Part shown: positions 1-64,000 of the stretch, in pieces
Numbering within the stretch: position 1 is the first letter of the stretch
Layout: each line of letters starts with the position of its first letter
From: a candidate division WOR-3 bacterium
Lineage (GTDB): Bacteria > Hydrothermota > Hydrothermia > LBFQ01
Assembly (NCBI GenBank): GCA_039802605.1
Contig: JBDRWW010000002.1
Location: 64,001 to 128,000 of the forward strand
Reading direction: 5' to 3'
Length of the DNA stretch: 64,000 nucleotides
Position numbers and translations under genes: made by a program
Notes under the pieces: model-generated
Told to the model about the DNA's origin: nothing
The model's input: the letters and a program-made list of their open reading frames with translations, nothing else
The model's database searches: none

Positions 1-1073
1 ATTGTCCGCGCATCGGTGTTGTAATTCGACGGGGCACAGCGGGTAGTAATGGAACCGCATATATATCCCCAACTGTTCGTATGGACCCTTGCACCCCTTG
101 TATAAGCATCGGTTAATACCGTGTTAAACCCGGAACTTCCTCCCCCAAGTGGGGCTTGCGAGATGATCCTTGACATATAGGCCAATCCCCTGTATAAAGC
201 GGAAGACGCGCTCGTGGCACTGGAATAACCGACGGCAGTTCCGGCCGTATGCGTTCCATGGCAACCCGTTCCGGGACTGCTATTACAGTTTGTCCCAGCA
301 GGTAGGGATGCCACACCGCAACCACCTCCTCCATAATTGCAAAGCGTTACGATTTTCGGTTGCCCCAATACACTGCCGGAGAAGAAACAGTGATTTCTAT
401 CAAGACCGTCGTCGTTATGCCCGAGAATCTCGCCCTCCCCGTGCAGCCCTTTATACCATACGATGGTATCGGTTGGATTGGTTGAAGATTGTATATCAAA
501 CCAGAGACCGGATTGGTGGGTTACGGCTTTTCTGTTGTTCCAGTTTATTATAGGATGTTTGAACTCAACAAAGAAAACCTCCGGTAAATTTGCAAATTTC
601 CGTATTTTATCAACATCGCCCGCGACTTCAACATACGGGTTTTGGGGGTCTATACCCCTTACTTCCAAACCTTCCTTTTGCGCTATTAGGGTTATTTTAT
701 AAATGTCGTTGGAATCTATTAAAACAAGCCTTGCGACATACTTGCCGTTTTCTGTATAGTAGCATCCGTTTTTTAACTTTTCATTTAAGAATACGGGTAA
801 TTTGTACTCCGGGGGTATTGGTACTATCCTCGCCACATATGGCCTTTTAAGCGCTTCTTTTAAGGAGAACTCCGAACCGGAAACCACAAAAGCGTATTGG
901 GGTAGATAATCGTAAAACCTTATACCAAGGCTTGATAATTCTTCTTTGTATTGGGGATATATGGGTCCTTTGAATTGCAGGATATGATAGGGATTGTCCG
1001 TTACCCTACTCTCCACATTCAACTTATGCCCATTTACCCATAAAGACGGCGAAAATAAAACTAACCACATCAT
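1..1073 (-). CDS. S8 subtilisin-family serine protease, KP-43-like (partial, runs off the left edge)
   Basis: Not in the ORF track; translated by hand. Open frame from ATG 1073: MMWLVLFSPS..., propeptide YHILQFKGPI/YDYLPQYAFVV, catalytic Asp region GLHGEGEILGHNDDGLD, His motif CHGTHTAG, and GARVHTNSWG. Confidence 0.93.
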   Translation of the reverse strand, partial: MMWLVLFSPSLWVNGHKLNVESRVTDNPYHILQFKGPIYPQYKEELSSLGIRFYDYLPQYAFVVSGSEFSLKEALKRPYVARIVPIPPEYKLPVFLNEKLKNGCYYTENGKYVARLVLIDSNDIYKITLIAQKEGLEVRGIDPQNPYVEVAGDVDKIRKFANLPEVFFVEFKHPIINWNNRKAVTHQSGLWFDIQSSTNPTDTIVWYKGLHGEGEILGHNDDGLDRNHCFFSGSVLGQPKIVTLCNYGGGGCGVASLPAGTNCNSSPGTGCHGTHTAGTAVGYSSATSASSALYRGLAYMSRIISQAPLGGGSSGFNTVLTDAYTRGARVHTNSWGYICGSITTRCAPSNYNTDART

Positions 1074-1151
1074 AACACCAGATATTGTAAAGTTGTGAGG
1101 TTTGTTATTTCAAGTCATAATGAACCTGCAAGCAACCTTAAAATCTCTAAT

Positions 1152-1850
1152 ATGAGTCTTTTTATTTCCTTTGTTTATATGAAGCACGAGGCTTGGGCAT
1201 CCTTTTCAAAGTTCTCCTATAAGTATAGGGATAAGAGTGCGGTGGCGGATATAGGGGGATATATGAGGTTGTTTAAGTGGGGTGATCACGGTTTGGCGGT
1301 TGGAGGGGATTTTGTGGTTTGGCTGGGTTATGATGTGGGTCTAATCCAGTTGGACCCAATATATGCGGATTATTATGTTTGGTTTGGTGGTTTTAAAGAG
1401 GCAAATAGCGGAACATGGTACTTATTCGTTGAACATCCCTGCTTCCACTACATAGACAGACTTGATACATTACCCCTGTACTGGAATGCTATAAGGTTAA
1501 TGTATAGGGAAAGGGATTTTGAGATTTCCGCTGCCCAGTACATACATAGCGAAAAGTATCAATTCCTTTCAAGGGGGACGGATTGGGGTACGGATTTGAA
1601 GGTTTTTAAAAGGTTAAGGAAAAACCTTGGGAAGGATATTTCAATGTTTTTGGATTGGTATTCGTTTCTGGCTTTGGGTAGAAATTACCGAAGTTTATAC
1701 GCATCCTTGGAAGTAAAGGGGGGATTGGAGTTTATAAATGAAAATGGGGATTTTACCATATCCCTGGGTTTTAGGCCCTATGAAAGGACAGGTATAATAA
1801 GGGATGCCGAGGGTGTCCCTTATATTTCTTTAAAAGTTAGAGGATTTTGA
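1152..1850 (+). CDS. Hypothetical protein, aromatic and beta-rich, possibly outer-membrane
   Basis: ORF 1095..1850; start moved to ATG 1152 because TAAAAT lies 7 nt upstream; ends in Phe. Confidence 0.6.
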   Translation: MSLFISFVYMKHEAWASFSKFSYKYRDKSAVADIGGYMRLFKWGDHGLAVGGDFVVWLGYDVGLIQLDPIYADYYVWFGGFKEANSGTWYLFVEHPCFHYIDRLDTLPLYWNAIRLMYRERDFEISAAQYIHSEKYQFLSRGTDWGTDLKVFKRLRKNLGKDISMFLDWYSFLALGRNYRSLYASLEVKGGLEFINENGDFTISLGFRPYERTGIIRDAEGVPYISLKVRGF

Positions 1851-1876
1851 CAAGAAATGGATTTCAGCCTTAAAAT
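1847..1876 (+). promoter_or_regulatory. Sigma70-type promoter, leaderless or near-leaderless
   Basis: TTGACA-N18-TAAAAT, ATG 9 nt downstream. Confidence 0.8.
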
Positions 1877-1885: not shown

Positions 1886-3283
1886 ATGATATATTATATT
1901 TTAAGCGCTTGCGGATGTCCCACATACAATGTCAATTTAAGCAATAGGGTGGGGAGGGATTTACCGTACAACGACCTAAACTATATCTCAACCGAAAGGA
2001 GCATAAAAAATGTCGCATCCTGCAAGGGTAAGGTTCATGTCGCTTGGTTTGCAAGGGATTTTTCGGGGAATACGGCCATACTTTACCGTAGAAGCGCCGA
2101 CGGTGGAATAACTTGGGATCCCGCCGTACAACTAACAATCGGAAACTTGGACCTTGAACTTTGGGTTCAGTGCTATGGGGATACCGTGGTAGTTGCGTAT
2201 GAAAAACTTTTCTCTGACAAGGAAATATATTATAGGTATTCCACAAACGGTGGTGCAACTTGGAGTGCGGAAGCCGTTATGAGAGGGGGTTCTTATAACC
2301 AAGAGGGGCCATCTGTGTGGATAGGTGGGAATAAACTACACTTGGCATGGGCTGATAATACACCACTCCTTCTAACCCCCATATATTATATATTCTACAA
2401 CAATAGCACAAATTTGGGTTTGAGTTGGTCGTCAAATACCAGGTTGGATTTATCAGATTCACCCATAATAGTCGGAGACCCTACAAACCCAAACATATTG
2501 CACATTTGGTTTATGATATTCAATACCCTTGAAAGTAAGGCGAGATATATAAGGAGTGTTGATGGAGGCGCCACTTGGTCTTCAACATTTGACCTTTCAG
2601 GCGGTGTAGATGCCTCCGGAAGCGGATTTTGGAGAAGACCTGTAGGTTCAATTACGGCATACGGCATATATGTACATGCGGTCTTTGTTGATGATAGGTT
2701 TGGGAATAAGGAGGTTTTATATAGAAGATCAACGAATTCCGGCGCCTCTTGGTCGGGTATAATAAGATTGACAAATACACCCGGAACATCTTGGAGCCCA
2801 TTTATATTAACAAATCCTTTGGGGGAGGTTAGGCTTTATTGGGTTGATGATAGCGATGGGGATTACGAGGTTATGTGTAAGATTTCAACGGATAACGGTG
2901 CCAATTGGTCATCCGACGATAGGCTAACAAACAATTCCGCAAGGGATGTAATGGTTAGCCTTGATTACGACCCAACGAATTCAAGATGGCATATTGTATG
3001 GGCTTCAAACGAGACGGGCGATTGGGAGGTATATTACACATCCGACCCATGTCCTATGGGAAACGACGACGAATTGGGTGTTGAAGAAAAGGCGGATAAT
3101 GGGAATTTGAGGATATTAAGGGATGGAATAGTTTTCGATTCCGATGGAGAGGTTAAGGTTTTCGGTTGGTCGGGTAGAACTTACAAAAAGGTTTGGGTTT
3201 ATAAGGGTTATATGTTAAAACTACCCAAGGGGGTTTGGTTTGTGGAGTTTAAGGGGAGGATGTACAAGGTCGTCATAAATTAA
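1886..3283 (+). CDS. Asp-box/BNR repeat (sialidase-like beta-propeller) protein with a T9SS-like C-terminal domain
   Basis: Repeated S-x-D/N-x-G-x-T/S-W boxes (RSADGGITW, STNGGATW, SVDGGATW, STDNGANW); C-terminus LPKGVWFVEFKGRMYKVVIN. Confidence 0.85.
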   Translation: MIYYILSACGCPTYNVNLSNRVGRDLPYNDLNYISTERSIKNVASCKGKVHVAWFARDFSGNTAILYRRSADGGITWDPAVQLTIGNLDLELWVQCYGDTVVVAYEKLFSDKEIYYRYSTNGGATWSAEAVMRGGSYNQEGPSVWIGGNKLHLAWADNTPLLLTPIYYIFYNNSTNLGLSWSSNTRLDLSDSPIIVGDPTNPNILHIWFMIFNTLESKARYIRSVDGGATWSSTFDLSGGVDASGSGFWRRPVGSITAYGIYVHAVFVDDRFGNKEVLYRRSTNSGASWSGIIRLTNTPGTSWSPFILTNPLGEVRLYWVDDSDGDYEVMCKISTDNGANWSSDDRLTNNSARDVMVSLDYDPTNSRWHIVWASNETGDWEVYYTSDPCPMGNDDELGVEEKADNGNLRILRDGIVFDSDGEVKVFGWSGRTYKKVWVYKGYMLKLPKGVWFVEFKGRMYKVVIN

Positions 3284-4439: not shown

Positions 4440-5789
4440 ATGGATAGGGGAACAAGATTAATACTATACTTCGTTTTTGTGTTTGTTTTTTTCTTTGTAT
4501 GGGATTACTTTGTTTTGAGACCTAAAAGGGAGGCCCTTTTAAAGGAAAGCGAAAAAACCGAAAAGGTTGAAAAAAGACATGAATCCACTCCCAAAATAGC
4601 ACACTTAAAGTTCAACGGATACGAATATTTAATAGATTCAAACACGGGGGCCATTTTCGGATTAAGGGATGAAAAACACAAGGCTAAAATCTCCGGATAC
4701 ATAGTTAAGCCCCTACGCGTTGATTCCCAAGGGGTTGAGGTTGTCAAAAACGGAGTTATAACGGATAGGTTCGAGATAGCACACCTGGGAAATTTTAGGC
4801 TAAAAGTGGTTTTAAAGGAGGAAATACCCTTTGAAATAACCACACCCCTAACGGAATACAATGGTTATAGGGGTGAAAGGAAACAACTTTTTATACAATA
4901 TTTGAACGGAAAAACTAAGAAATACGATTATAAAAATGCGAATATGGACTTCTATACGGATACCGTGAAATGGATGGGTTTGAGGTCAAGGTATTATTTG
5001 GCATCGGTATGGGATTTTAAGGGTTTTGCATCCTCTTTTAAGGATGGCGATAGGATAACCATAAGGTTGTATCCGAAAGGGGATAAGGAGTTTTACATAT
5101 TTCTTGGACCCGCGGAGAGGAATTTGCTTTCCGGAGAACCCGATATGAGGGCGGCTTTTGACCTCGGGGGTGGGTGGTCCACATTTATCGCATGGCCCAT
5201 ATACTGGGCTTTAATATGGTTTGAGGGTTTAACAAAAAATTACGGGCTTGCCATAATCCTTTTGGCAATACTTATAAAAATCCTAACATCACCCCTATCA
5301 ATAAATATTTACAAATCCTCTCAGAAAATGCAGAAGTTAAAACCAAAACTTGAAAAAATACAAAAACTCTATAAGGATGACCCAGAAAGGTTGCAATGGG
5401 AAACCATGAAACTTTACAGGGAAGCCGGCTTTAATCCCCTGAGCGGATGCTTGCCCCTACTCTTGCAACTTCCCATATTCTTTGCTTTATATCAGGTTTT
5501 GCAGAACGCAATAGAGTTAAAGGGGGCGGAGTTTCTATTATGGATAAAGGATTTAAGCCATAAGGACCCGTACTATGTTCTCCCGATAGTGATGGGGGGT
5601 ATAAGCCTATTGAACGCTTACCTTCAACCCGGTTTGGATCCGCAGGCGAAAAGGACATCAATGATTATGTCCGCCTTATTCGTGTTTATTTTCCTAAGTT
5701 TTCCCGCGGGTATAGTTCTGTATTGGTTAATATACTCCCTTTTGGGCATCGTTGAGCAGAGAATATACAAAGCATTATGGAAACTATAA
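4440..5789 (+). CDS. yidC: Membrane protein insertase YidC
   Basis: NYGLAIILL, GCLPLLLQLPIFFALY, LWIKDLS-DPYYVLP, PAGIVLYW. Confidence 0.96.
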   Translation: MDRGTRLILYFVFVFVFFFVWDYFVLRPKREALLKESEKTEKVEKRHESTPKIAHLKFNGYEYLIDSNTGAIFGLRDEKHKAKISGYIVKPLRVDSQGVEVVKNGVITDRFEIAHLGNFRLKVVLKEEIPFEITTPLTEYNGYRGERKQLFIQYLNGKTKKYDYKNANMDFYTDTVKWMGLRSRYYLASVWDFKGFASSFKDGDRITIRLYPKGDKEFYIFLGPAERNLLSGEPDMRAAFDLGGGWSTFIAWPIYWALIWFEGLTKNYGLAIILLAILIKILTSPLSINIYKSSQKMQKLKPKLEKIQKLYKDDPERLQWETMKLYREAGFNPLSGCLPLLLQLPIFFALYQVLQNAIELKGAEFLLWIKDLSHKDPYYVLPIVMGGISLLNAYLQPGLDPQAKRTSMIMSALFVFIFLSFPAGIVLYWLIYSLLGIVEQRIYKALWKL

Positions 5790-7683: not shown

Positions 7684-8307
7684 CATCCTTTTTGTCCTTT
7701 CCAATGCATCTTTTGCCTTATCAAATGTTGGATCCTCTTTCAAAGACATCTCAAAATACTCCGAAGCCTTTTCGTAATTCCCCTTTGAATACTCGTTTAA
7801 ACCCAGCTTATAGTAGTACTCGGCTTTTTCCCTATTGCCTCTTTTCACTTCAACGGGTCTTTCCAAAGCACCACCTTTATACACATAAAGGGTTTCCACT
7901 TTAACCACCTTTTTAACATTTACATCCCGCCATTTTAGGGAGAGGTTTGGAGAAAACAGGGGTTTAAAGTCTATAATATTAACCCCCAACTCAACGGATA
8001 CACCCAAGGGGAAATCCCTTATGATACCCTCCAAACCAATGGGTATATACAACCCGTAATCCAAATTCCCCCTTTTATACCCCAAAACCGGGCCAAAACC
8101 CGAGTAAAAGAACAGATTATCAAACATATAAAAATTGTAGGAACCCAATCCCTGGACATAAAAGTCCAAATAATCCCTTAAATGCACCCCCATTCCCGAG
8201 CGGGCCTCCAAGGAAAACCTTTCCCTATAAACCTTTAAAGAAACACCGAAAGGTTCTCCGATTAAAACACCCACTGACCATCCGGATAATGATACCAAAA
8301 GGACCAT
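7672..8307 (-). CDS. Small outer-membrane beta-barrel-like domain fused to a C-terminal TPR
   Basis: N-half has alternating hydrophobic strands (GVLIGEPFGVSLK, IPIGLE); C-half TPR (AEYYYKLGLNEYSKGNYEKA...DPTFDKA). Confidence 0.65.
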   Translation of the reverse strand: MVLLVSLSGWSVGVLIGEPFGVSLKVYRERFSLEARSGMGVHLRDYLDFYVQGLGSYNFYMFDNLFFYSGFGPVLGYKRGNLDYGLYIPIGLEGIIRDFPLGVSVELGVNIIDFKPLFSPNLSLKWRDVNVKKVVKVETLYVYKGGALERPVEVKRGNREKAEYYYKLGLNEYSKGNYEKASEYFEMSLKEDPTFDKAKDALERTKRMLNR

Positions 8308-8318: not shown

Positions 8319-8338
8319 ATTATAACCGCGTTTATAAT
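8319..8338. promoter_or_regulatory. Divergent -10 boxes (TPR gene and methyltransferase)
   Basis: TATAAT on - at 8319-8324 and on + at 8333-8338. Confidence 0.65.
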
Positions 8339-11575: not shown

Positions 11576-12027
11576 AAAACCTTATTGAATTAGAAGTTAA
11601 ATCCGTAGTTATGATAAGCACCACCGAGGGTATACCACAAGCCTTTGCTGTCGTATTAAAGGAGAAAGGTGGTTCCCGTTTGTTGCCCATATACATAGGG
11701 GGTTTTGAGGCCAACGCCATACAAATGGCCAAAGATGGCGAAAGGTTTGAAAGACCTTTAACCCACAACTTAATAGTCAGTATCATAGAAACCTTAGGGG
11801 CAAGGGTTGAGAGGGTTGTAATAAACGATCTAATGGATAACACATTTTTCGCGAGGATAATCCTCAGTAAGGATGATAGAACTTACAGCATTGACGCAAG
11901 GCCATCGGATTCCATAGCGATTGCCCTATTAACAAATGCCCCTATATATGTTAGTGCCCATGTTTTAGAAGAGGCGGGGGAATATTCCGCAGATTGGGAC
12001 GAGGAAGGCCAAGGGGATTGGGAATAA
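11572..12027 (+). CDS. Bifunctional nuclease family protein (DUF151)
   Basis: LPIYIGGFEA, RPLTHNL, IDARPSDSIAIAL. Confidence 0.93.
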   Translation: MKNLIELEVKSVVMISTTEGIPQAFAVVLKEKGGSRLLPIYIGGFEANAIQMAKDGERFERPLTHNLIVSIIETLGARVERVVINDLMDNTFFARIILSKDDRTYSIDARPSDSIAIALLTNAPIYVSAHVLEEAGEYSADWDEEGQGDWE

Positions 12028-12485
12028 CCCTGCTGGTAATTTCTTTACCCAACGACCTTGAAGTTTTATATTATGCCCTTGATTCCGCGTGCGCCTTTGG
12101 GTGCGATTTTAACGGCTATATAGAGTTTTCCGGTATAAGAAATCCCCAATTGGAAAACTATGTATTGTTAAAATATTTAAACATTTCACCGGAATGCACA
12201 ACCCGTATAAACATTATTTCAAGCCGCGTGTCTTATAGCTTTTCTTGGATAAATTATAAAAGGGAGGCGGAGGTTAAAATGATAATAAGATCTTGCGATG
12301 GAAAGGTGGCGTATAGGTATGGCAAATATTCGGATAGGGTACCATTCAACAGGACGAACGATATAAGGGTTCCGGGAATTTCCCCGGATATAAACACAAT
12401 AACACCCTCGTATTTTGAAATAGGCATTACGAGTTTAATGGTTTTGGGTATTTTATATGCCTTTTATGTAATAGAAGGGCAATGA
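12018..12485 (+). CDS. Hypothetical protein with a short hydrophobic N-terminus and a C-terminal TM helix
   Basis: ORF 11994..12485; TTG 12018 is the more plausible start (MGITLLVISLP...), uncertain. Confidence 0.55.
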   Translation: MGITLLVISLPNDLEVLYYALDSACAFGCDFNGYIEFSGIRNPQLENYVLLKYLNISPECTTRINIISSRVSYSFSWINYKREAEVKMIIRSCDGKVAYRYGKYSDRVPFNRTNDIRVPGISPDINTITPSYFEIGITSLMVLGILYAFYVIEGQ

Positions 12486-18703: not shown

Positions 18704-19120
18704 TTACCTTTTAGGGCCAAACAAGGCCTTTATTCTACCCCACGAATGCTCGTCCAGAGAGGATGGAATCTCGTTTTTTCTGCCCGGAGTTGCTACCAAG
18801 AACATCCTGAAATCACCGCGGCCGTCTGGATACCTACCCATGCTCCCCTGAGCGGGGAGGCTAATCCAAGTATAGGAATCAACGGTGTTTGAACCGTTTT
18901 TGAGAACAACGCTATCGGAGTTTATACTCAAACCCATGTAAAAAACCTTATATTCTCCGGGATTAATAACACCAAATAGGTTTAGAGTTCTGTTTTTCGT
19001 TATCAAAGTAAAATCGCTTAAATTTACGGGTGTTGAACCCGTATTATAAATCTCCACCCAACCCGAATCCGAACCTACCACCCCCACTTCGTTGATTACC
19101 AAAGAAAAGGTCAATACCAC
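18704..19120 (-). CDS. Lamin-tail-domain (LTD) protein with a C-terminal SWGRIKALF motif
   Basis: LVINEV, WVEIYNTG..VNLS, SMGRYPDG, ATPGRKN. Confidence 0.85.
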   Translation of the reverse strand: MVLTFSLVINEVGVVGSDSGWVEIYNTGSTPVNLSDFTLITKNRTLNLFGVINPGEYKVFYMGLSINSDSVVLKNGSNTVDSYTWISLPAQGSMGRYPDGRGDFRMFLVATPGRKNEIPSSLDEHSWGRIKALFGPKR

Positions 19121-19200: not shown

Positions 19201-20472
19201 ATGCTTTGGACAATATCTTGGGTAGTTGCACCTGTTATAAACGATACAATTTTTAAGGGGGATACATGCCCCGGAACTGCCGTCCACTCCGCATTGGTTG
19301 GAATACCGTCATCTTACGCGTGTGCGGATATAATGTTTGCCTTTGACCTAACGGGTTCAATGGGTGGGGAACTTTCGTATGCGCAAGCAAACGCAAATGC
19401 AATAATGGACAGCCTTATGTCATCAATACCGGATGTTAGGTTTGGAGTGTCATCGCATTCGGATTACCCGGCATCTTACTCCTGGTGCGGATATTCCGAT
19501 ACATACGGAATTTTCGAAGATTTTCCTTATCAACTGAACCAACCCCTAACTTATGATACCGCACTCGTCAGGTCTGCAATATACTCCCTCTCTATATTAT
19601 ATGGAGCAGATAGTCCCGAGGATTATGCGAGGCTTTTATGGGAAATGTTGAACGACCCCGGAATCGATTGGAGAAGATCTTGTGCGAGGTTCGTGGTGTT
19701 TTGGCTTGACAATATACCGCATGCTTGCGATATATACGACCCTTCAAGGCCTTATTGGACAAACACTGGGGTCGAACCCGGAAGGGATGCCACGGCTGGA
19801 ACTCCGGATGACATATATTGGTATCCCCTTTTGAGGGATTTGAGGAGAAACGGAATAAAACCTGTAATAATGGTTAGTGCAACTTATACATACTACCTCC
19901 CTTGGTGGCAGTATTGGATGTCCGATACCCTCGCGGATGGCATAGCAACCATAAGGGGCAGCGGTATAGCGAGGCAAATAGATTCCATTGTGAATTCAAC
20001 GGCCTTAACCATAGACACTTTAAGGCCTGTTGTTAGGGAACCCGCATATACCTCCTGGGTTAGTTTCACACCACCATATTATGCGGGTATAACCCTTTCG
20101 CCACCGGAGGATACATTCGGCTTCACAATAACCTTTAATGTTCCACCTGCCGCCCCATCGGGCTTACACACATTCCACATAGACTATTACAGGGATGCCA
20201 TACTCGTTGACAGCCAGTTGGTGAATTTATGGGTTTATGACTGCACGGCCGGGTACGACGACCCGATAGCTGTCAAGGAGAGGTTGAGCAGGGATAAGGT
20301 TATAATCACGCAAAATGCGGTTTATGTATCCGATGGATATACCGTTGAAGTTTATTCTGCGGACGGTAAGAGGATATACACATTGAATTCCGGAAAATAC
20401 GAGTTCAGGAATAGGGGTATATACTTCGTAAGGGTTAAGGGAGGAAAGACCTTTAAGGTCGTTGTCAGGTAA
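19201..20472 (+). CDS. von Willebrand factor A domain protein with a T9SS-like C-terminal domain
   Basis: MIDAS DLTGSM, GADSPED; C-terminus VEVYSADGKR...GIYFVRV...KVVVR. Confidence 0.85.
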   Translation: MLWTISWVVAPVINDTIFKGDTCPGTAVHSALVGIPSSYACADIMFAFDLTGSMGGELSYAQANANAIMDSLMSSIPDVRFGVSSHSDYPASYSWCGYSDTYGIFEDFPYQLNQPLTYDTALVRSAIYSLSILYGADSPEDYARLLWEMLNDPGIDWRRSCARFVVFWLDNIPHACDIYDPSRPYWTNTGVEPGRDATAGTPDDIYWYPLLRDLRRNGIKPVIMVSATYTYYLPWWQYWMSDTLADGIATIRGSGIARQIDSIVNSTALTIDTLRPVVREPAYTSWVSFTPPYYAGITLSPPEDTFGFTITFNVPPAAPSGLHTFHIDYYRDAILVDSQLVNLWVYDCTAGYDDPIAVKERLSRDKVIITQNAVYVSDGYTVEVYSADGKRIYTLNSGKYEFRNRGIYFVRVKGGKTFKVVVR

Positions 20473-20492
20473 TCGCCCTTAAAATACCCTTA

Positions 20493-20885
20493 ATGGGTGC
20501 GGGGATTATAGCGGTAGCATTTCAATATTTGGGTGTTCCCTACAAGTATGGGGGTAATGACACGGCGGGAATGGATTGTAGTGGATTTGTTAGAAAGGTG
20601 TTTGAACACTTCGGAATAGATGCACCAAGGAGGGCAAGGGATTATATAAATTTTGGGAAACCCGTTCCCTTGGATAGCATAATTCCCGGGGATATATTGC
20701 TCTTCAAGTTTGAACACAAGTATGTGGATCATGTTGGGATATATGTGGGGAACGATGAGGTAATACATTCCGCATCAAAAAGGGGGGTAATAGTTGAGAG
20801 TTTAAAATACATCAGAAAAAACCTCGTAGGTGCCAGGAGGGTTTATATACCTTCAAACATATACGATGCGGTGGTTGAATTTTGA
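20493..20885 (+). CDS. NlpC/P60 (C40) cell-wall peptidase
   Basis: YLGVPYKYGG, DCSGFV, PGDILLF, HVGIYVG, IHS. Confidence 0.95.
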   Translation: MGAGIIAVAFQYLGVPYKYGGNDTAGMDCSGFVRKVFEHFGIDAPRRARDYINFGKPVPLDSIIPGDILLFKFEHKYVDHVGIYVGNDEVIHSASKRGVIVESLKYIRKNLVGARRVYIPSNIYDAVVEF

Positions 20886-41728: not shown

Positions 41729-41937
41729 TTCCTCTGAATAATCCTACCCCTACTCAAATCGTAGGGGCTTAGTTCCACCAAGACCCTATCCCCCGGTACG
41801 ATTTTTATATATCTAACCCTCATCTTCCCTCCAAGGTGTGCAAGAACCACTATTCCGTTATCAAGTTTCACCTTAAAAAGCGTGTTTGGTAAAACCTCTA
41901 TAACAGTGCCTTCCATACGGATCATCTTACCGGACAT
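41725..41937 (-). CDS. infA: Translation initiation factor IF-1
   Basis: [30 protein letters not shown]. Confidence 0.97.
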
Positions 41938-42703
41938 CTATATCCTCCGTTAAAATTATAGGGCCTTCGCGCGTTACGAATATGGTGTGTTCGTAATGGG
42001 CGGACCACTTCCCATCCTTTGTTACTATTGTCCAACCATCCCTCTTGGATTTAACATCCCCTTTACCCATATTTATCATCGGCTCTATCGCCAAACCCAT
42101 ACCCACCTTAATCCTCCAATCCGCATCAATATCATCCGGATGGTTGAATATTATCGGATCCTCGTGCAATTCCAAACCTATACCGTGTCCCGTTACCCCC
42201 CTTGCGGGTTCAAAACCGTACTTTTTAACCGTATTGTATATAGCATAGGTTATATCGGAAACCTTGTTGCCCTTATACGCAACATTTATTGAGTTATATA
42301 ATGCCTCTTTGGTAGCCTTCATCAAAAGGATTACCCTTTGTGGAACCTCGCCTAAGGCAAATGTCCAAGCGGTATCCGAATGATAACCGTCATACTCAAC
42401 ACCCACATCCACCTTAACTATCATTGGGGCCTTTAATATCTTACTCTCCTTGGGTAATCCGTGAACCACCTCCTCGTTTATTGATATGCATGTGCTATAA
42501 TTATAAATCTTATTGTCCGTTTCGTATCCCAAAAAGGAAGGCCTCCCACCCCTTGAAAGTATAAAATCCCTTATTTCATCGTCTATATACTTCGCACTAA
42601 CGCCATCTTTTATGAGTTTTTTCGCCAAACGCAACGAATCCGACGCAATTTTTGCCGCCTCCTTCATGCCCAATAGGTCGATATCGTTTTTAAGGATTAT
42701 CAT
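41927..42703 (-). CDS. map: Methionine aminopeptidase, type I
   Basis: [28 protein letters not shown]. Confidence 0.97.
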
Positions 42704-43344
42704 AACACCCCCTTAATCCTCTCATAAACCCCCTCATAATCCCCAACACCATCAACCCTTAATAACAACCCCCTTTTATCGTAGAAACTTATGAGAACTT
42801 CCGTGTTTTCCCTATAAACCTTTAACCTATTTCTTACAACCTCCTCCTTATCGTCTTCCCTTTGGATAAGTTTTGATCCACAATAATCGCATATCCCATC
42901 CTCCTTGGGAGGGTTAAAAATAAGGTTATAAACCCTACCGCAATTAACGCACACCCTACGATAAGATATCCTTCTAATTATCTCCTCATCCGGGACATCC
43001 AGCAAAATCACATGGGTTATGTTCAGCCCTTTGCGAGATAGCATTTCATCCAGCGCTTCCGCCTGCGGCATATTCCTCGGGAAGCCGTCAAGTATAAAAT
43101 CCCTATGACCGTTTATCGCCTCTTCTATAATCCCAACTATTATGCTGTCGGGTACCAATTCGCCCCTTTCCATATATTCTTTTGCCCTTTTTCCGAGTTC
43201 CGTACCCTTTGCCACCGCCTCCCTTAAAATGTCCCCTGTTGAAATCTTCTTTATACCCAAATCCCTTGCCAACCTTTCGGCTTGCGTACCTTTCCCCGCA
43301 CCCGGAGGGCCAAGAAAGATTATCCTATACCCATCCCTCTCCAT
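42700..43344 (-). CDS. adk: Adenylate kinase with a Zn-lid
   Basis: GPPGAGKGTQA, LDGFPR, CxxC...CxxC lid. Confidence 0.97.
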   Translation of the reverse strand: MERDGYRIIFLGPPGAGKGTQAERLARDLGIKKISTGDILREAVAKGTELGKRAKEYMERGELVPDSIIVGIIEEAINGHRDFILDGFPRNMPQAEALDEMLSRKGLNITHVILLDVPDEEIIRRISYRRVCVNCGRVYNLIFNPPKEDGICDYCGSKLIQREDDKEEVVRNRLKVYRENTEVLISFYDKRGLLLRVDGVGDYEGVYERIKGVL

Positions 43345-44651
43345 GACCTAACCTTTGCCCTACCAACCAAGCTTTCGTAGCGGTACATTATGAGATAAGA
43401 GTTTATCCTTTGTAGTAAGTCTAAGGCAACTCCAACGATTATCAGTAGCCTTGTGCCTCCGAAGTATAGGGGTATGTTTAGGGCTGTTGAAACATGATAT
43501 GGGATAATCGCCACGGCGGAGAAAAATAGGGCTCCCGGAAGGAGAATTCTGGTCATTATCCTGTCTATGTATTCCGCCGTCTCATCCCCAGCCCTTATTC
43601 CGGGTATAAAAGCCGAAGCCCTTTGTAAATTATCCGCAACTTCCTTGGGGTTAAAGACAATAGAGGTGTATAAATACGCAAAGAATATTATGAGCAGGGC
43701 GTATGTTATGTCGTGTATTAGGGTTCCGGGCTGGAAATAGGCCGCCAAACCCGAGAAGACACCTTCACCCGTGAATGTAAAGGCCGTTTGTGGGAATAAC
43801 AGTATACTTTGGGCAAATATTATGGGCATAACGCCGGCGGTGTTTATGGTTAAGGGCAAATATCCCATCTGCGCGGTTGGGGACAAACCAACCGTCCTTT
43901 TCGCATAACTTATAGGAACTCTCCTATGAACTTCCGTTGCTATTACCACCAAACCCGTTAAAATCAAAACGAATACGAGCATGAATACGACGGATTGCGT
44001 TGAAACCGCCCCGTTTTTCCAAAGGGTATATGTGCTTATAATTTCGTTGGGAAGGGAATCCAATGAACCTGCGAATATTAAAACGGATGCCCCATTCCCT
44101 ATTCCCCTATCCGTTATCTGCTCCCCCATCCACATAAGGAGTATTGAACCACCCACGAGGGATAACATCGTTGATATTACGAAAAGGGGTCCGGGATTGG
44201 GGACAACGGGCAACCCAGAAGGGCTTGTTAAGGATTGTAAGAAGGATGATATTCCAAAGGATTGTAATGCGGAAATTCCAACGGTTAGCCAGCGGGTATA
44301 TCTATTCAAAATCCTCCTACCGTGTTCTCCTTCCCTTTGCAACCTCTCAAAATAGGGAACCGTTGAAGAGAGGAGCTGGATTATAATGGATGCGGATATG
44401 TAGGGCATTATACCCAAACCAAAAATGGCAGCCCTTGAAAGGGCCCCACCCGCAAAAATATCAAACATGCCAAAGGCGGTATTCGCCAAGGCAACCCTAA
44501 AATACTCGGCAAGGGCGCTAACATTTACTCCGGGAACGGGTATATGCGTTCCAACCCTGTAAAAGAATAGGATTATAAGGGTAAAAACTATCCTTTCCCT
44601 TAATTCTTTAACCTCCCACAACCCGCTTAATATCCGCATCCACCTTTCCAT
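43320..44651 (-). CDS. secY: Preprotein translocase subunit SecY
   Basis: LGIMPYISASII, GIGNG, AGVMPIIFA, IPGIR. Confidence 0.98.
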   Translation of the reverse strand: MERWMRILSGLWEVKELRERIVFTLIILFFYRVGTHIPVPGVNVSALAEYFRVALANTAFGMFDIFAGGALSRAAIFGLGIMPYISASIIIQLLSSTVPYFERLQREGEHGRRILNRYTRWLTVGISALQSFGISSFLQSLTSPSGLPVVPNPGPLFVISTMLSLVGGSILLMWMGEQITDRGIGNGASVLIFAGSLDSLPNEIISTYTLWKNGAVSTQSVVFMLVFVLILTGLVVIATEVHRRVPISYAKRTVGLSPTAQMGYLPLTINTAGVMPIIFAQSILLFPQTAFTFTGEGVFSGLAAYFQPGTLIHDITYALLIIFFAYLYTSIVFNPKEVADNLQRASAFIPGIRAGDETAEYIDRIMTRILLPGALFFSAVAIIPYHVSTALNIPLYFGGTRLLIIVGVALDLLQRINSYLIMYRYESLVGRAKVRSWRGMGIG

Positions 44652-45234: not shown

Positions 45235-45813
45235 TTATTTAAGTTTTTTGAGCGCTTCGTCTATTTCCCGAATTTCCTCATACCTTCCAAGAGTTTCAAG
45301 CATGGTTTTCGCCATATTTAAATCCTTTTTCGCCTCGCCAAACTTACCTTTATATGTCAACGCTATTCCCCTATATTTGTAGGCATAGCCTAGGGTTGCG
45401 GCATCGGGGTAGTTCTCTATAAAGTGGCTCATAATTTGTATCACCTCGTCAAACCTCTTCATTTGTAATAAGGAATAACCCAAGAACCTATAAGCATCTT
45501 CAACCTTAGCACTGCTCGGGAATTGCTGAACAAACTCGCCACACCTCTCAACGGTTTTGGGATAGTTAAAGGATGCGTATGCCCAGTTGCATGCATAGAA
45601 AAGCGCGTCTTTTCTACCCTTACTGTCCGGATGGTTCTTGTAAAAGGCATAAAGGGAATCCGAAAGGGCGCTTAAACCAGCCGTATCCCCTCCAACTTCT
45701 TCAAACATCTGTTGAACCTTGGGGAGGTATTCATCCCATGGGTCCTTCTTTTCTTCCTTTTTTCCACCGCAATAAATCAAAAAAATTATGAAAAAAGGTG
45801 TAAGCCTTTTCAT
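45235..45813 (-). CDS. TPR lipoprotein (BamD/CpoB-like repeats)
   Basis: Lipoprotein-type signal MKRLTPFFIIFLIYC; TPR repeats (FPSSAKVEDAY, YPDA). Confidence 0.75.
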   Translation of the reverse strand: MKRLTPFFIIFLIYCGGKKEEKKDPWDEYLPKVQQMFEEVGGDTAGLSALSDSLYAFYKNHPDSKGRKDALFYACNWAYASFNYPKTVERCGEFVQQFPSSAKVEDAYRFLGYSLLQMKRFDEVIQIMSHFIENYPDAATLGYAYKYRGIALTYKGKFGEAKKDLNMAKTMLETLGRYEEIREIDEALKKLK

Positions 45814-46337: not shown

Positions 46338-46780
46338 GTATCCTTTAAGAGTTCCTTAACCTTTTTTTCAAAAAGTCTCGCATGACCTTCTGAAAAACCG
46401 CTCCTTTTCATAACCACATTCCCGTTTTTATCAATTATTATGGTCGTGGGTATGGAAAACACATTGTAGAGATCGGATACCAGGTTATCTTTATCCAGGA
46501 GGATTAAATACTCTAAATTCTTGTCCTTTACAAATCTCTTAACCGCCCTTTCGCTAATATCCACGCTTATACCTATGACCACCAAACCGCTATCCTTATA
46601 AGTTTTATGCAGCTCGTTAAAAAACGGCACGGACGCCCTACAAGGGGGACACCATGTGGCCCAAAAGTCCAAAACCACAACCTTACCCTTAAAATCGGAA
46701 AGCCTGTATTCTTTCCCGTTTATGTCCTTTAAAGCAAAGTCTTTGGCCTTCTCAAAGGATAACAAATACAGCATTAACAT
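46316..46780 (-). CDS. TlpA/ResA-family thiol-disulfide oxidoreductase
   Basis: GKVVVLDFWATWCPPC, IPTTIIIDKNG. Confidence 0.94.
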   Translation of the reverse strand: MLMLYLLSFEKAKDFALKDINGKEYRLSDFKGKVVVLDFWATWCPPCRASVPFFNELHKTYKDSGLVVIGISVDISERAVKRFVKDKNLEYLILLDKDNLVSDLYNVFSIPTTIIIDKNGNVVMKRSGFSEGHARLFEKKVKELLKDTCEGSPC

Positions 46781-46789: not shown

Positions 46790-46840
46790 ATTATAAAGGC
46801 GAATGTTTTATTCCATAACATAAGGTTTCCCACATAGAAT
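46790..46840. promoter_or_regulatory. Divergent -10 boxes (tlpA and acyltransferase)
   Basis: TATAAT(-) 9 nt and TAGAAT(+) 6 nt before the starts. Confidence 0.65.
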
Positions 46841-50524: not shown

Positions 50525-50525
50525 C

Positions 50526-58098: not shown

Positions 58099-58140
58099 TT
58101 GAGGTTGAAGGCTATGGTAATCACCTTTAAAATATCCGAT

Positions 58141-60423
58141 ATGCTCGGAATAATAGCCTTTGGCGATATGGAGTTTTTAGGGCCAGAGGGATTGGAGGAA
58201 AGGGCGAGGTTAAAGGGTGAATGGGTTAATGTGGGGAGCGTATTTTCGGCGAATATAAATTATTCAACAACCATTAGGTTTATAGGGCCAAAACCAATTT
58301 ATGGGGTGGGCTTTTCCGATGGCAAGGCTAGCGGTAGGGTATCTTTTGTTTTACCGCACCCTACGGATACGGCGGTTGCATATATATCTTCTGCGGGAGG
58401 GGGTGTTTGGAAAACCACGGATGGGGGAAACACATGGATACCCCTAACGGATAACCTACCGGTTTTAACGGGTGGGGCGTTGGCCTTTAACCCCTTAAAT
58501 ACAAATGTAATATGGTACGGCTCGGGTGAATTGCATTATTGTGCCGTATGTTTCCCGGGGGATGGCCTATTTAAATCAACGGATGGGGGTATAACCTGGG
58601 TAAAGGTTGCACCGGCAAATGTGGTGGGATATTACATATCCCGGATAATAGTTATGCCAAACGATACGAACACAATACTTGTCGCAAGTGATAGGGGTGT
58701 GGTTAAATCAACGGATGGGGGAAGCACTTGGGTGAACGTTTTCTCCGGCGATCATGCAAACGATTTGGTTTATAGGAGCGATAATCCGAATGTTCTCTTT
58801 GTGGCTACCCTGTATTCGGGTATTTATAAATCAACGGATGGGGGAAATACGTGGACGAGGATTACATCCCTACCAACCTATGGCTATTTTAGGGCGCAAA
58901 TTGGTATTTCCCCAAGCAACCCGGATGTCATATATGTTGGTTTTGGGGATTCAGATTATTCCTTGAAGGCCTTTTATAAATCGACCGATGGAGGTTTAAC
59001 ATGGGTGCAACTAACAAACACACCCAATTACTTGGGTTTTCAAGGGTTTTATAACCATACCATAGTTGTGCATCCCAACGATCCCAATGTTGTATTTGCC
59101 GGGGGGCAATACCCTTATAACTCCTCAACCTATGGTATAGTTAGGAGTACCGATGGCGGAAGCACATGGGAGGATATAACCAACAGGGGTTCAAGCGGCC
59201 ATGTACATCCGGATATACACCATATGGCCTTTGGTGCTGGAAATATTTTATGGGTTGCGTGTGATGGCGGTGTTTGGAAGAGTTATGATAACGGAAACTC
59301 TTGGGTAAATCTAAACGAGGACTTGGAATTAACGCAGTTTTATACGATTGATGCCCATCCATTGGATACCCTTTTGGTGGTTGGCGGTACCCAGGACAAC
59401 GGAACCCCGATGTTTTCCGGAAGCATAAATTGGGATGAGGTTTCCGGAGGAGATGGGGGTCCGGTGCTTTGGAGACCCGATAACCCCATATACTTTTATA
59501 CATCCCAAATTTACACAAATCCCCTTTACATGTTCAGATGGACGGGGAGTTCCGTTATCCTTGAAAGAATCGTAAATTCACCTTGGAGATTTGACAGGGT
59601 TTCTTGGGCCAACGGACCCTTAGAGGGTCACAGGAGTGGTCCCGTTATTATAGCGGGTTCTCATAGGTTGTGGAAATCAACGGACGGGGGAAATACATGG
59701 ACAGCCATCAGCGGGGATTTAACGGGTGGAAGCGGTTATTTACTCTCGGCGGCCTTTTCATATACAAGCACCGATACGATATATACGGGTTCAAATACGG
59801 GTAGGTTTTACTTCACACCCGATGGGGGAAACACATGGATCGCAAGAATTTTACCATCTACCGGATCTATAACGGACATATGGGTTAATCCGAATAACGG
59901 TTCCGAGGTTTATATAACTTTGAGGAGGACAAGCGGTCCAAGGGTTTTGCGCTCATCGGATGCCGGACAAACTTGGCAAGACATAAGTGGGGATTTACCA
60001 ACCGGAAGGAATGTTAGGGCATTGGCAATAGACTTCACGGTTAACCCTTACATTATTTTCGTTGGTACGGATGATGGGGTTTATTATACTTTGGATCAGG
60101 TTAATTATACAAAGGTCTTGGGATTGCCAAACGCCATAGTGTTTAACCTTGATGTTAATACCGTATATAACAAGTTATATGTTGCGACCCACGGGAGGGG
60201 TGTATGGATGATTGATTATTCATCCGTTGTTGAAATCGCGGAAGGTCATAAACGGGAGAAGGGTATAAATTACCTAAAAGGTGGAATAAGGAGCGATGGC
60301 TTTGTTGAGGTTTATGGGATAAACGGTCAAAGGGTTGCCAGCGGAAAGGGTTTTATCCCCTTAAAGAGGGGGATATACTTCGTTTTGCAAAAGGGTAAAT
60401 ACAAAAAGGTCTTGATTAAGTAA
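58141..60423 (+). CDS. Asp-box/BNR (Vps10/YCF48-like) beta-propeller protein with a T9SS-like C-terminal domain
   Basis: Many K/R-S/T-x-DGG-x-TW repeats, GGTQDNG, ATHGRG; start set to ATG 58141 (TAAAAT 7 nt upstream). Confidence 0.88.
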   Translation: MLGIIAFGDMEFLGPEGLEERARLKGEWVNVGSVFSANINYSTTIRFIGPKPIYGVGFSDGKASGRVSFVLPHPTDTAVAYISSAGGGVWKTTDGGNTWIPLTDNLPVLTGGALAFNPLNTNVIWYGSGELHYCAVCFPGDGLFKSTDGGITWVKVAPANVVGYYISRIIVMPNDTNTILVASDRGVVKSTDGGSTWVNVFSGDHANDLVYRSDNPNVLFVATLYSGIYKSTDGGNTWTRITSLPTYGYFRAQIGISPSNPDVIYVGFGDSDYSLKAFYKSTDGGLTWVQLTNTPNYLGFQGFYNHTIVVHPNDPNVVFAGGQYPYNSSTYGIVRSTDGGSTWEDITNRGSSGHVHPDIHHMAFGAGNILWVACDGGVWKSYDNGNSWVNLNEDLELTQFYTIDAHPLDTLLVVGGTQDNGTPMFSGSINWDEVSGGDGGPVLWRPDNPIYFYTSQIYTNPLYMFRWTGSSVILERIVNSPWRFDRVSWANGPLEGHRSGPVIIAGSHRLWKSTDGGNTWTAISGDLTGGSGYLLSAAFSYTSTDTIYTGSNTGRFYFTPDGGNTWIARILPSTGSITDIWVNPNNGSEVYITLRRTSGPRVLRSSDAGQTWQDISGDLPTGRNVRALAIDFTVNPYIIFVGTDDGVYYTLDQVNYTKVLGLPNAIVFNLDVNTVYNKLYVATHGRGVWMIDYSSVVEIAEGHKREKGINYLKGGIRSDGFVEVYGINGQRVASGKGFIPLKRGIYFVLQKGKYKKVLIK

Positions 60424-62588: not shown

Positions 62589-63310
62589 ATTCGGTTTTGA
62601 GGACGGAGAACCTCGTAAAGATTTACAAAAAAAGAAAGGTTGTTAACGGTGTTTCGGTATTTGTGAAGCAGGGGGAGATAGTGGGGCTTTTGGGGCCAAA
62701 CGGTGCCGGTAAAACTACAACATTTTATATGGTGGTTGGGGCCATAAAACCCAACGGTGGTAAGGTTTATTTGGACGGAAAGGATATTACGAAATTACCC
62801 ATGTTTAAGCGCGCCCGCTTGGGGATAGGATATTTGCCGCAGGAACCTTCCGTATTCAGGTACCTATCCGTTTGGGATAATATATACGGCGTTCTTGAAA
62901 TGAGGGGTGTTAAGAGAAGTGAAGCAAAAAGGAAAACGGAAGAGGTTATAGAATTGTTAAATTTAAAAAAAGTGGTGAAGAGTTTGGGAATCCAACTTTC
63001 TGGTGGGGAAAGGAGGAGGGTTGAGGTTGCAAGGGCAATTGTTTTAAATCCCAAATTCCTGCTCCTTGACGAACCCTTTGCCGCCGTTGATCCGAAAACA
63101 AGGGAAGAAATACAAGAAATCGTATTAAAGTTGAAGAACATGGGTATAGGTGTAATAATAACGGACCACAATGTAAGGGAGACATTGGAAATTACCGACA
63201 GGGCTTATATAATTTACGATGGGAAAATATTGCTTGAAGGTTCAACACAGGATTTGATAAACGACCCGAAGGCAAGGGAGATATATCTCGGAGAAAAGTT
63301 TAGGATGTAA
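62585..63310 (+). CDS. lptB: LPS export ABC transporter ATP-binding protein
   Basis: GPNGAGKTTTFY, YLPQEPSVF, LSGGERRRVE, TDHNVRETL. Confidence 0.96.
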   Translation: MNSVLRTENLVKIYKKRKVVNGVSVFVKQGEIVGLLGPNGAGKTTTFYMVVGAIKPNGGKVYLDGKDITKLPMFKRARLGIGYLPQEPSVFRYLSVWDNIYGVLEMRGVKRSEAKRKTEEVIELLNLKKVVKSLGIQLSGGERRRVEVARAIVLNPKFLLLDEPFAAVDPKTREEIQEIVLKLKNMGIGVIITDHNVRETLEITDRAYIIYDGKILLEGSTQDLINDPKAREIYLGEKFRM

Positions 63311-63354
63311 GGATTTTTAGCCAAAAAATTCTTCGGGCTTAAAATTCCACACCT

Positions 63355-64000
63355 ATGGTATCCATCATTTCCTTTTTTGTCCATCCCGAAACCGCGTTAT
63401 GGGTTGGAGATAAAATATTCGTAAGCGATATAGGTGAGTTTAATAAGAGGGACGGAAAGGTTTATGTTAGGATTGGAAGTAATTGGGAGGTATATGCATC
63501 GTATTTAAATGACCCTAAGGGTTTGGCACACTGCAAGGGAGTATTGTATGTGGCAGATGTTGATAGGATATGGGCCATAAAAGACAAATCGGCCGTTTTC
63601 CTTTTTGTGGGTCCGAAGGATTTCAAGGCGGAATTTTTAAACGGCATAACCTGCCGCAGAGGCGAAAAACTTTATGTTAGCGACACATATGGGAATGCGA
63701 TTTACGAGGTTGATATAAGCACAAAAACCGTGAAAAAGGTTTTGGAAGTTGAAAAACCCAACGGCCTAGCCCTTGACATCTCCGGAAACCTGTATATAAT
63801 AACATTCACAAAACCCGGAATGATTTTAAGGTGGGATGGCAACAAAATTGATACGCTCCTTGTAAGCGAGGATATAAACGGGGGGGATGGAATAGTTTAT
63901 GACGAAGATAGTAGAGCCATAATAGCATCGGGGTTTGAATCCGGTAAGGTTATCCAATTAACACCGGACGGTAAGTACGAGGTTATAGCAAAGGATTTGA
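63355..64000 (+). CDS. SMP-30/gluconolactonase-like beta-propeller protein (partial, runs off the right edge)
   Basis: Translated by hand: MVSIISFFVHPE...LNDPKGL...LYVAD...FLNGI...LYVSD...PNGL...GDGI; no stop before the edge. Confidence 0.82.
   Translation, partial: MVSIISFFVHPETALWVGDKIFVSDIGEFNKRDGKVYVRIGSNWEVYASYLNDPKGLAHCKGVLYVADVDRIWAIKDKSAVFLFVGPKDFKAEFLNGITCRRGEKLYVSDTYGNAIYEVDISTKTVKKVLEVEKPNGLALDISGNLYIITFTKPGMILRWDGNKIDTLLVSEDINGGDGIVYDEDSRAIIASGFESGKVIQLTPDGKYEVIAKDL

Follow-up and report, generated by a model that had tools for sequence, protein, structure and literature searches.

Proteins of the cell envelope and secreted proteins of a hot-spring bacterium of candidate division WOR-3 begin with hydrophobic leaders that are uncharged and only a few residues long. 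These leaders had been pointed out in an original prediction made for a 64,000-nucleotide stretch of the genome (the window), where they were put forward as a candidate for a separate secretion-signal system. The N-termini quoted there were reproduced at their coordinates, and the pattern extends through the whole genome, in which 127 proteins carry such a leader. With moderate confidence, we interpret the leaders as N-terminally truncated but functional Sec-type signal peptides, which in this lineage would be the main form of signal on substrates of signal peptidase I (SPI). A separate system was not borne out: the leaders resemble the C-terminal part of ordinary Sec/SPI signals, the ordinary machinery is encoded, and a truncated Sec signal is the more likely of the two. 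The short leaders thus appear to be a lineage-wide variant of the Sec signal that reaches well beyond the window, and the lineage does encode protein families of obligatorily exported type with a minimal uncharged leader.

The genome studied here (G000; 1.65 Mb, 41% G+C, 23 contigs, 90% complete) contains the window as G000:C2:64001-128000. Open reading frames (ORFs) were called with a simple home-made caller using translation table 11, which gave 1584 ORFs and a normal coding density of 95.6% of the DNA. N-termini were then sorted by a crude, home-made classifier that required a seven-residue window with a mean Kyte-Doolittle value of at least 2.2 and no charged residue. A broad set (n = 191) comprised proteins in which the hydrophobic run begins at residues 1-3 and the uncharged run is no longer than 20 residues, and a strict set (n = 152) those in which the run begins at residue 1. 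Among the strict proteins, 127 have 6-12 residues before the first polar residue, and these 127 strict leaders consist of Met and uncharged hydrophobic residues, lack Lys and Arg, and show a length peak at 7-9 residues. The same classifier assigned 223 N-termini of the genome to the type in which Lys or Arg precedes a hydrophobic stretch.

All 152 strict proteins were searched against Pfam, those longer than 650 amino acids being cut to their first 650 residues. A family was matched in 96 cases, and on the basis of general knowledge of these families, not of a localisation tool, 51 were classed as envelope or exported proteins, 9 as integral membrane proteins, 26 as ambiguous and 10 as cytoplasmic. 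The exported set with short leaders includes BamA and a second Omp85 protein, OmpA-domain proteins, FadL, two proteins of the OEP/TolC family and a TonB-dependent receptor that has a Plug domain; SurA, LolA, a LolA_like protein, c-type cytochromes, Cu/Zn superoxide dismutase (SOD), PCuAC and a DsbA-like protein belong to it too, and Amidase_3, M23, M14, M28 and C25 peptidases and NosD are also represented. The leader of BamA reads MLLGILVL and is followed by Gln, with a stop codon two codons upstream, and the short leader of SurA has a stop one codon upstream. The Pfam domains of the short-leader proteins start at residues 6-14, and therefore there is no space for a normal signal. When the genome was instead surveyed family by family, short leaders were found on 7 of 7 Peptidase_S8 proteins, 2 of 2 OEP proteins and 3 of 5 Cytochrome_CBB3 proteins, as well as on 13 of the 16 proteins with a Por_Secre_tail, the tail of type IX secretion system (T9SS) cargo, of which two others have canonical signals and one has an uncertain start. 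Some of the short leaders counted in this way lie just below the hydrophobicity threshold and were judged by eye.

One alternative is that these N-termini have no signal function, in which case the proteins would stay in the cytoplasm, or the hydrophobic residues would merely reflect composition or a first beta-strand and be common to all proteins. The 10 cytoplasmic calls among the 152 strict proteins (SurE, MiaA, PurF, IspDF, glycosyltransferases of family GT2, AlaDH, a deaminase and others) do have a hydrophobic first beta-strand of this kind. BamA, TolC, FadL, c-type cytochromes and T9SS cargo, however, cannot function in the cytoplasm, and canonical signals occupy this place in orthologues from other lineages. 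Nor do cytoplasmic proteins show such N-termini equally often, a comparison that the original prediction had called for: none of the 32 window proteins of cytoplasmic-type families begins with a short leader. For the families named above this explanation is refuted, and overall we give it next to no credence.

Canonical signals coexist with the short ones, as had been proposed. Across the genome we counted 44 lipobox signals with Cys at positions 13-25, together with signals of the MKR...AQ type, and in the window the canonical N-termini singled out earlier, at 30246, at 45813 and on the ATPase proteolipid (50526-50828), are all present. Short leaders with a lipobox number six in the genome (Cys at positions 9-11), plus the window protein at 1886 (Cys9). 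Because the lipobox signals are mostly canonical, the short form appears to be mainly a feature of presumed SPI substrates.

We then asked whether the start codons themselves can be trusted. Throughout the genome, TANAAT is concentrated 6-10 nt ahead of the first start codon, where about 445 of 1578 ORFs have it. A candidate start with a TANAAT-type hexamer 5-11 nt upstream is present in 612 of 1584 ORFs, the figure for internal in-frame start codons being 1.1%; the distance from the end of the hexamer to the start codon is 6-10 nt, with a mode of 8-9. Alignment of the 612 sites gave the consensus tttttCa.CCTTAtAATAcCC, in which the position 6 nt upstream of the hexamer is a C in 88% of cases. 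No clear peak was seen for a TTGACA -35 element (at most one mismatch), with 14 of the 612 sites having one at a 17-nt spacer. The tttttCa.CCTTAtAATAcCC element is probably a promoter specific to this lineage. With no room left for a Shine-Dalgarno (SD) site, roughly 40% of genes would be leaderless or nearly leaderless. Sites of this type in the window include 19186-19191, 19130-19135, 1871-1876, 46790-46795 and 63340-63345.

The short leaders of the broad set are preceded by a -10 box in 97 cases, by an SD site in 37 and by neither in 57. The -10 box is not causally linked to short leaders, because these occur behind SD sites and other starts too. Operon genes with a short leader have a strong SD site right before the short start (aggaggtg for TolC and ggaggtga for the TonB-dependent receptor; also FadL, PCuAC and SurA). 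The -10 boxes and the SD sites are unrelated start signals, yet both point to the same N-termini. An in-frame stop lies within 5 codons upstream of 54 of the 127 strict leaders and within 12 codons of 86, often as the TAA within the -10 hexamer, and 104 of the 127 use the first start codon of their frame. In addition, public gene calls match the short starts exactly for BamA, SurA, TolC, TlpA, the BNR protein and LolA, although for the GTG-extended form of LolA the comparison is uninformative because a reference translation begins with Val.

An annotation artefact, in which the true starts lie upstream (at non-canonical codons or through a frameshift or read-through) and restore normal signals, is largely refuted by these results, and we regard it as very improbable. 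Alternative upstream starts do exist at 1152, 12018, 16528 and 58141 and for LolA (36399), and TlpA has an in-frame ATT upstream. The artefact is at odds with the stops 0-5 codons upstream in 54 of 127 cases, often a TAA inside the -10 box, with the placement of SD sites at the short start, with orthologues in up to 30 genomes that keep the short frame while the upstream sequence changes, and with the lack of conservation of the LolA extension. Inspection ruled out a different genetic code, or read-through of the stop upstream, since the upstream frames contain no signal-like sequence and coding density is normal. Non-canonical upstream start codons were likewise rejected as a general cause; they are possible for a few genes only, such as TlpA with its ATT, and cannot rescue most cases. 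We conclude that the short start codons are real and not mis-called. In AT-rich relatives at the order level (loci L077-L081), BamA has a TTG start directly behind a TAAAAT-like box, which would mean non-AUG initiation on an apparently leaderless mRNA.

We compared the N-termini with those of orthologues in 30 genomes, ranging from the same genus to the same class, and in a sample of 120 genomes of the phylum that was searched with BamA; since relatives are not independent, these kinship comparisons are descriptions, not tests. In the genus, family and order of the studied genome and in one further family (f5), the BamA leader has 6-9 residues, lacks Lys and Arg, nearly always precedes Gln and often has a stop 1-3 codons upstream, and its residues vary freely among hydrophobic ones. 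The leader has 11-17 residues in other families of the class. Six loci from other classes of the phylum gave five readable leaders of 8-22 residues, two of which are canonical (MRK and MRI), the start of the sixth (G047) being unclear. The BamA signals of one Hymenobacter, one Ignavibacterium and one Eisenbacteria genome have 27-30 residues with Lys or Arg, and those of the first two end in Ala-Gln. Leader length is thus graded, from 27-30 residues in other phyla through 11-17 in the class to 7-9 in the order to which the studied genome belongs.

SurA of the same family begins with Met and six hydrophobic or small residues, then Gln and LDTLD, while in four class-level families it has MKK- or MRK-type signals of 17-20 residues that end in Ala-Gln-Gln or Gly-Gln-Gln. 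Counting back from a conserved DK(I/V)V motif places the Gln that follows the short leader level with the first Gln after the canonical signal, so that Ser-Gln in the short form corresponds to Ala-Gln in the class relatives. TolC orthologues show the same pattern of conservation. Only the studied genome and its closest relative have the GTG extension of LolA, which would supply a basic n-region; the short leader is where eight other orthologues start, six of them with a stop within 1-6 codons upstream. TlpA keeps an 8-9-residue leader throughout the family, with TATAAT just upstream, and in class-level relatives the same EKAPDF domain start is preceded by canonical or lipoprotein signals. Comparison of BamA and LolA orthologues, as the original prediction had suggested, accordingly found the short leaders kept in family and order.

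The same script was run on about 400 kb of each of three genomes. Strict short leaders were found on 35 of 371 ORFs in the studied genome (length peak 7-9; -10-type starts before 149 of 371), on 41 of 350 in an order-level genome (peak 7-8; 141 of 350) and on 29 of 336 in a class-level genome (G020, tiles L301-L320), where lengths peak at 9-12 and spread to 18 and where -10-type starts number 52 of 336. The peak at 7-9 residues is not built into the classifier, because the same script yields shifted length distributions in the order- and class-level genomes. Leaderless transcription and signal shortening may have evolved together.

The hydrophobic run of the strict leaders consists of Met and 5-8 residues; with total length peaking at 7-9, it is at or below the lower limit of the usual hydrophobic core of about 7-15 residues. 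A positively charged n-region was found in none of the 127, which have no charged residue ahead of the first polar residue (positions 7-13), the only possible positive charge being the N-terminal amino group. Position 2 is Ile, Leu, Val, Met or Phe in 113 of the 127, and Met1 is probably retained, because in 96 of 127 the residue at position 2 is too bulky for Met removal by the known specificity of methionine aminopeptidase. Trp is found at position 3 in 21 of 127 leaders and in 26 of 975 proteins that lack an N-terminal hydrophobic run, and the next ten residues after the leader have a mean net charge of -0.47, compared with +0.07 in controls. Small residues rise from 12-15% in the core to 31% at -3 and 45% at -1, the last leader position, with no separate polar c-region. 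Gln comes first among the polar residues in 35 of 152 strict proteins (34 of the 127), about 5-fold above an expected 4.8%; next in frequency are Pro, Asp, Asn and Glu. Ala-Gln is likewise found at the end of canonical SPI-type signals in this genome, and the short leaders share this junction of a small residue and Gln. No twin-arginine (Tat) motif is present, there being no Arg or Lys anywhere in the leaders, and inspection, without a dedicated scan, gave no type IV prepilin signal, as the run is 6-8 residues long and no conserved Gly/Glu pattern is seen.

If the leaders are truncated Sec signals, they would correspond to the C-terminal remnant of ordinary ones. The precursor would begin with a retained Met and 6-8 strongly hydrophobic residues with no basic n-region, followed by a small residue and then usually Gln, Asp, Glu or Asn. 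The short hydrophobic run would engage SecYEG through SecA or the signal recognition particle (SRP), as an h-region does, and LepB would cut at the junction of the small residue and Gln (or Asp or Glu). The missing basic n-region could be compensated by the N-terminal amino or formyl group, the interfacial Trp and the acidic early mature region, which from what is known of Sec mechanics might be pulled across by the membrane potential. A charge-free N-terminus might also allow so short a peptide to shift towards the outer leaflet, bringing the junction within reach of the peptidase.

Ordinary components of such a route are encoded. A genome search found one signal peptidase I (LepB), one signal peptidase II (LspA), peptide deformylase (Def) and SecA, and genes for SecY, YidC and methionine aminopeptidase lie in the window (Table 1). 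Compared with named genomes, this SecY matched only bacteria of the FCB group (Ignavibacteria, Eisenbacteria, Calditrichaeota, Marinimicrobia, Gemmatimonadota and Bacteroidota), at no more than 50% identity. The aminopeptidase and the deformylase bear on the proposal that export relies on retained formyl-Met: as an obligatory feature, formyl-Met retention finds no genomic support, given that both enzymes are encoded, but on individual hydrophobic N-termini it could still be retained. Nothing was found in support of N-terminal acylation, which had been offered as another possibility. As candidates for a glutaminyl cyclase, PF04389 (M28) proteins were considered and rejected, since the only matches are a 551-aa PA/PDZ peptidase and an M20-type enzyme, neither of them cyclase-like. 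Gln cyclisation might be spontaneous at hot-spring temperature.

Several points weigh against the view that the leaders are truncated Sec signals. An eight-residue run is too short to span the bilayer. At the inferred -1 position, 52% of leaders have a large hydrophobic residue, so the cleavage site is uncertain for about half of them. Lipoproteins keep canonical signals in most cases (44 versus 6), and the short form therefore does not serve all routes equally. The glutaminyl cyclase family Glu_cyclase_2 (PF05096) was not found in the studied genome at its 90% completeness. The ORF caller and the classifier are crude, and about 10 of the 152 strict calls are cytoplasmic beta-strand N-termini. 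Sampling of 3% of two raw metatranscriptomes returned 0 reads, and so provided no test of the transcription starts. Lastly, the leaders fall outside the 16-30-residue tripartite norm given in the abstract of PMC8804277.

Some of these features would be expected if the leader were a targeting tag that SPI does not cut at the predicted junction. Such a tag might enter the translocon head first, unanchored on the cytoplasmic side, and be kept or trimmed later, or it might use a route or factor other than the standard Sec/SPI hairpin mechanism. A leader of this size is too short for a membrane-spanning hairpin, has no basic residues, probably retains Met1 (position 2 being bulky in 96 of 127) and in half of the cases lacks a small residue at -1. 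On the other hand, the enrichment of Gln after the leader and the homology of this position to a canonical Ala-Gln site are hard to explain without cleavage there, and release is a necessity both for barrel proteins and for soluble proteins of the periplasm (SurA, LolA, cytochrome c, SOD). T9SS cargo, moreover, needs Sec first, and no genes of an extra pathway were found, though no search was aimed at them. We consider a tag that is not cut there rather unlikely. We hold open, as a tentative possibility, that in this order-level lineage the tripartite signal has been replaced by a mechanistically distinct minimal tag. It would have 7-9 residues without charge, among them an interfacial Trp and a Met that is retained and perhaps formylated, and could not form the classical membrane-spanning hairpin. 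Such a tag would need head-first or sliding engagement, or a SecY lateral gate and a signal peptidase that have co-evolved with it, and if real it would be a new class of Sec signal that redefines the minimum information for protein export.

The examples from the window are collected in Table 1. For the genes at 1886, 8307, 19120, 19201, 32329 and 46780 the absence of an upstream ATG, GTG or TTG was confirmed, and the same is true of 63355; the first upstream stops of these seven lie 4, 4, 1, 9, 18, 9 and 4 codons away, respectively. Four starts (1152, 12018, 16528 and 58141) retain a plausible upstream alternative and are ambiguous. The proposal that an adjacent -10 box fixes the starts stood for 11 of the 13 examples, which have a TANAAT-type hexamer 6-11 nt upstream, and failed for 12018 and 16528, where a G-rich SD-like sequence takes its place. 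Most of the family names that had been given to these proteins were supported by Pfam (S8 protease, BNR/Asp-box, LTD, LolA, TlpA-type redoxin, BNR/sortilin propeller and SGL/NHL). Others were not confirmed: the helix-hairpin-helix (HhH) protein at 16528 has a weak match (E 0.003), the "vWA" protein at 19201 has no family match at E<=0.01, the "barrel" at 8307 matches only a C-terminal TPR, and the "TonB receptor" at 32329 has a sub-threshold match to CarbopepD_reg_2 (E 4e-4) and no Plug or TonB barrel match in Pfam.

Table 1. Putative short leaders, comparison signals and genes of the export machinery, in window coordinates.
Feature	Position	Strand	Remarks
Leader MMWLVLFS, S8 subtilase	1050..1073	-	Peptidase_S8 (Pfam); ORF runs off the window start; 12 open upstream codons without a start codon; TACAAT 1084-1089, 10 nt upstream
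Leader-like MSLFISF, protein without family	1152..1172	+	Ambiguous: GTG 1095 upstream; TAAAAT 1139-1144, 7 nt upstream
Leader MIYYILSA and Cys9 (lipobox-like LSAC), BNR/Asp-box protein (1886-3283)	1886..1912	+	BNR_2; stop 4 codons upstream; TAAAAT 1871-1876, 9 nt upstream; same start in public gene calls
yidC	4440..5789	+	60KD_IMP, E 1e-54
Uncharged N-terminus MVLLVSLSGWSVGVLIG, protein with C-terminal TPR (7672-8307)	8257..8307	-	Stop 4 codons upstream; TATAAT 8319-8324
LGITLLVIS stretch, no family	12018..12044	+	Ambiguous: TTG 11994 would give basic MGRGRPRG; SD-like sequence, no -10 box
MMFPFI, weak example with 5 hydrophobic residues	16528..16545	+	Alternative TTG 16462 overlaps upstream gene; HHH_3, E 0.003
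Leader MVLTFSLVI (GTG start), LTD protein (18704-19120)	19094..19120	-	Stop 1 codon upstream; LTD domain from residue 6; TATAAT 19130-19135, 9 nt upstream
Leader MLWTISWVVAPVI, 423-aa protein without family	19201..19239	+	Divergent from 19120; 9 open codons without a start; TATAAT 19186-19191
MGAGIIAVAF then Gln, NlpC/P60 peptidase (added example)	20493..20522	+	NLPC_P60 from residue 14; TAAAAT 20480-20485, 7 nt upstream
Canonical signal MRKVVWFLSLMGVFLILFA then Gln, multihaem cytochrome-like protein (comparison)	30246..30305	+	Upstream frame and Pfam
Leader MLVVAL, 639-aa protein with N-terminal CarboxypepD_reg-like domain	32329..32346	+	18 open codons without a start; TAGAAT 32315-32320
Leader MVLVFLMAS, LolA	36343..36369	-	LolA (Pfam); TATAAT 36376-36381, 6 nt upstream; upstream GTG (36399) exists
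Methionine aminopeptidase gene (Map, M24)	41927..42703	-	Peptidase_M24, E 1.8e-41
secY	43320..44651	-	SecY, E 6.6e-100
Canonical lipoprotein signal MKRLTPFFIIFLIYC, YfiO/TPR lipoprotein (comparison)	45769..45813	-	Upstream frame and Pfam
Leader MLMLYLLSF, TlpA-type thiol-disulfide oxidoreductase	46754..46780	-	Redoxin (Pfam); TATAAT 46790-46795; in-frame ATT upstream
Leader MLGIIAFG, BNR/sortilin propeller	58141..58164	+	Ambiguous: TTG 58099 upstream; TAAAAT 58128-58133, 7 nt upstream
Leader MVSIISFFV, SGL/NHL propeller protein	63355..63381	+	Stop 4 codons upstream; TAAAAT 63340-63345

Within the gene at 19201-20472, a contig of RNA library X1 covers window positions 19389-20000 at a mean word depth of 105, compared with at most 18 for other pieces of the window, which hints that this gene is highly expressed; the contig has 9 differences from the window and so stems from a related strain. 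Two further RNA libraries gave contigs over parts of the window, and such contigs cannot reveal transcript 5' ends. Two paralogues with a bifunctional nuclease domain (BFN_dom) differ in their N-termini: the one in the window (11572-12027) has no leader, and that at G000:C5:45291-45740 begins with MLMVFFT followed by Gln, a short hydrophobic leader-like sequence. Part of a V-type ATPase operon (49886-52657) encodes subunits I, c-proteolipid and E, and the proteolipid has a canonical-looking MMKR N-terminus. Elsewhere the window contains a DpnII-type restriction-modification pair (8346-10158), in which an N6_N4 DNA methylase is followed by a DpnII endonuclease, and two adjacent paralogues of the Uma2 family (putative restriction endonuclease-like; 36439-37472) whose N-terminal halves are near-identical.

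If the leaders work as they appear to, the accepted lower limits for a signal peptide (a basic n-region, a core of about 10 residues and a total of 16-30 residues) are wrong for at least one phylum-level group, and the accepted minimum for bacterial signal peptides may need revising. Essential proteins such as BamA, SurA and LolA would depend on short leaders. Most of the secretome of these uncultured thermophiles is likely to escape prediction tools that were trained on canonical signals, and exported enzymes may for this reason be under-counted in published reconstructions of metabolism and ecology. The stepwise decrease of leader length, from 27-30 through 11-17 to 7-9 residues, would amount to a natural experiment on signal shortening and on what compensates for it, and very short secretion tags could be useful in protein engineering. 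Passages of PMC12285271 describe a cultured WOR-3 isolate with inner and outer membranes, which would make the question directly testable.

A full-text literature search, judged mostly from titles and the beginnings of abstracts and excluding supplements, returned no description of such short signals without an n-region. Term searches of two WOR-3 genome papers (PMC12285271 and PMC12542636) did not find "signal" in the text searched, and "secretion" and "leaderless" were likewise absent from that of PMC12542636. Among known systems, lipoprotein signals, the substrates of signal peptidase II (SPII), are matched by the roughly seven short leaders that end in a lipobox-like Cys at positions 9-11; unlike these, most lipoproteins here keep canonical MKR signals with Cys at 13-25. 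Engineered signal-peptide mutants of Escherichia coli that lack n-region charge or have shortened h-regions form another precedent, in that charge-free n-regions can support some export. In those mutants loss of charge reportedly had to be offset by lengthening the core or making it more hydrophobic, and shortened cores did not work, whereas here charge and core are reduced at once, and in native essential proteins. In about 40% of genes the -10 box is only a few nucleotides away from the start codon and leaves no space for an SD site, which recalls the leaderless mRNAs of Actinobacteria and Deinococcus-Thermus; here, however, the spacing peak of 8-9 nt suggests untranslated regions of 0-3 nt, a C is conserved 6 nt upstream of the hexamer with no clear TTGACA, and short signals are not confined to such genes.

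The Gln after the leader is reminiscent of the Q-rule of Bacteroidetes, under which SPI substrates have Gln at +1 that is cyclised to pyroglutamate (PMC5837995, PMC10653852); the rule is described as specific to Bacteroidetes rather than common to the FCB group. In the genome studied here, too, Gln is enriched right after the leader, in short and canonical signals alike (20493-20525 and 30246-30308 are window examples), and T9SS-type C-terminal domains are also present. The differences are that this is another phylum, that about a quarter of the leaders (34 of 127) rather than roughly 70% have Gln, and that no Glu_cyclase_2 match accompanies it. The closest likeness is to Sec/SPI signals themselves, for which the abstract of PMC8804277 gives a tripartite organisation and 16-30 residues. 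Like them, the leaders described here are N-terminal hydrophobic segments on periplasmic, outer-membrane and secreted proteins, a small residue tends to precede the junction, SecA, SecY, YidC and LepB are encoded, and the leader sits where orthologues carry canonical signals. They differ in that they lack a basic n-region and a separate polar c-region, have a run of 6-8 rather than about 10-15 residues within a total of 7-11 rather than 16-30, and are enriched in Trp at position 3; and the short leader is the main form of a whole order, not an oddity of single proteins.

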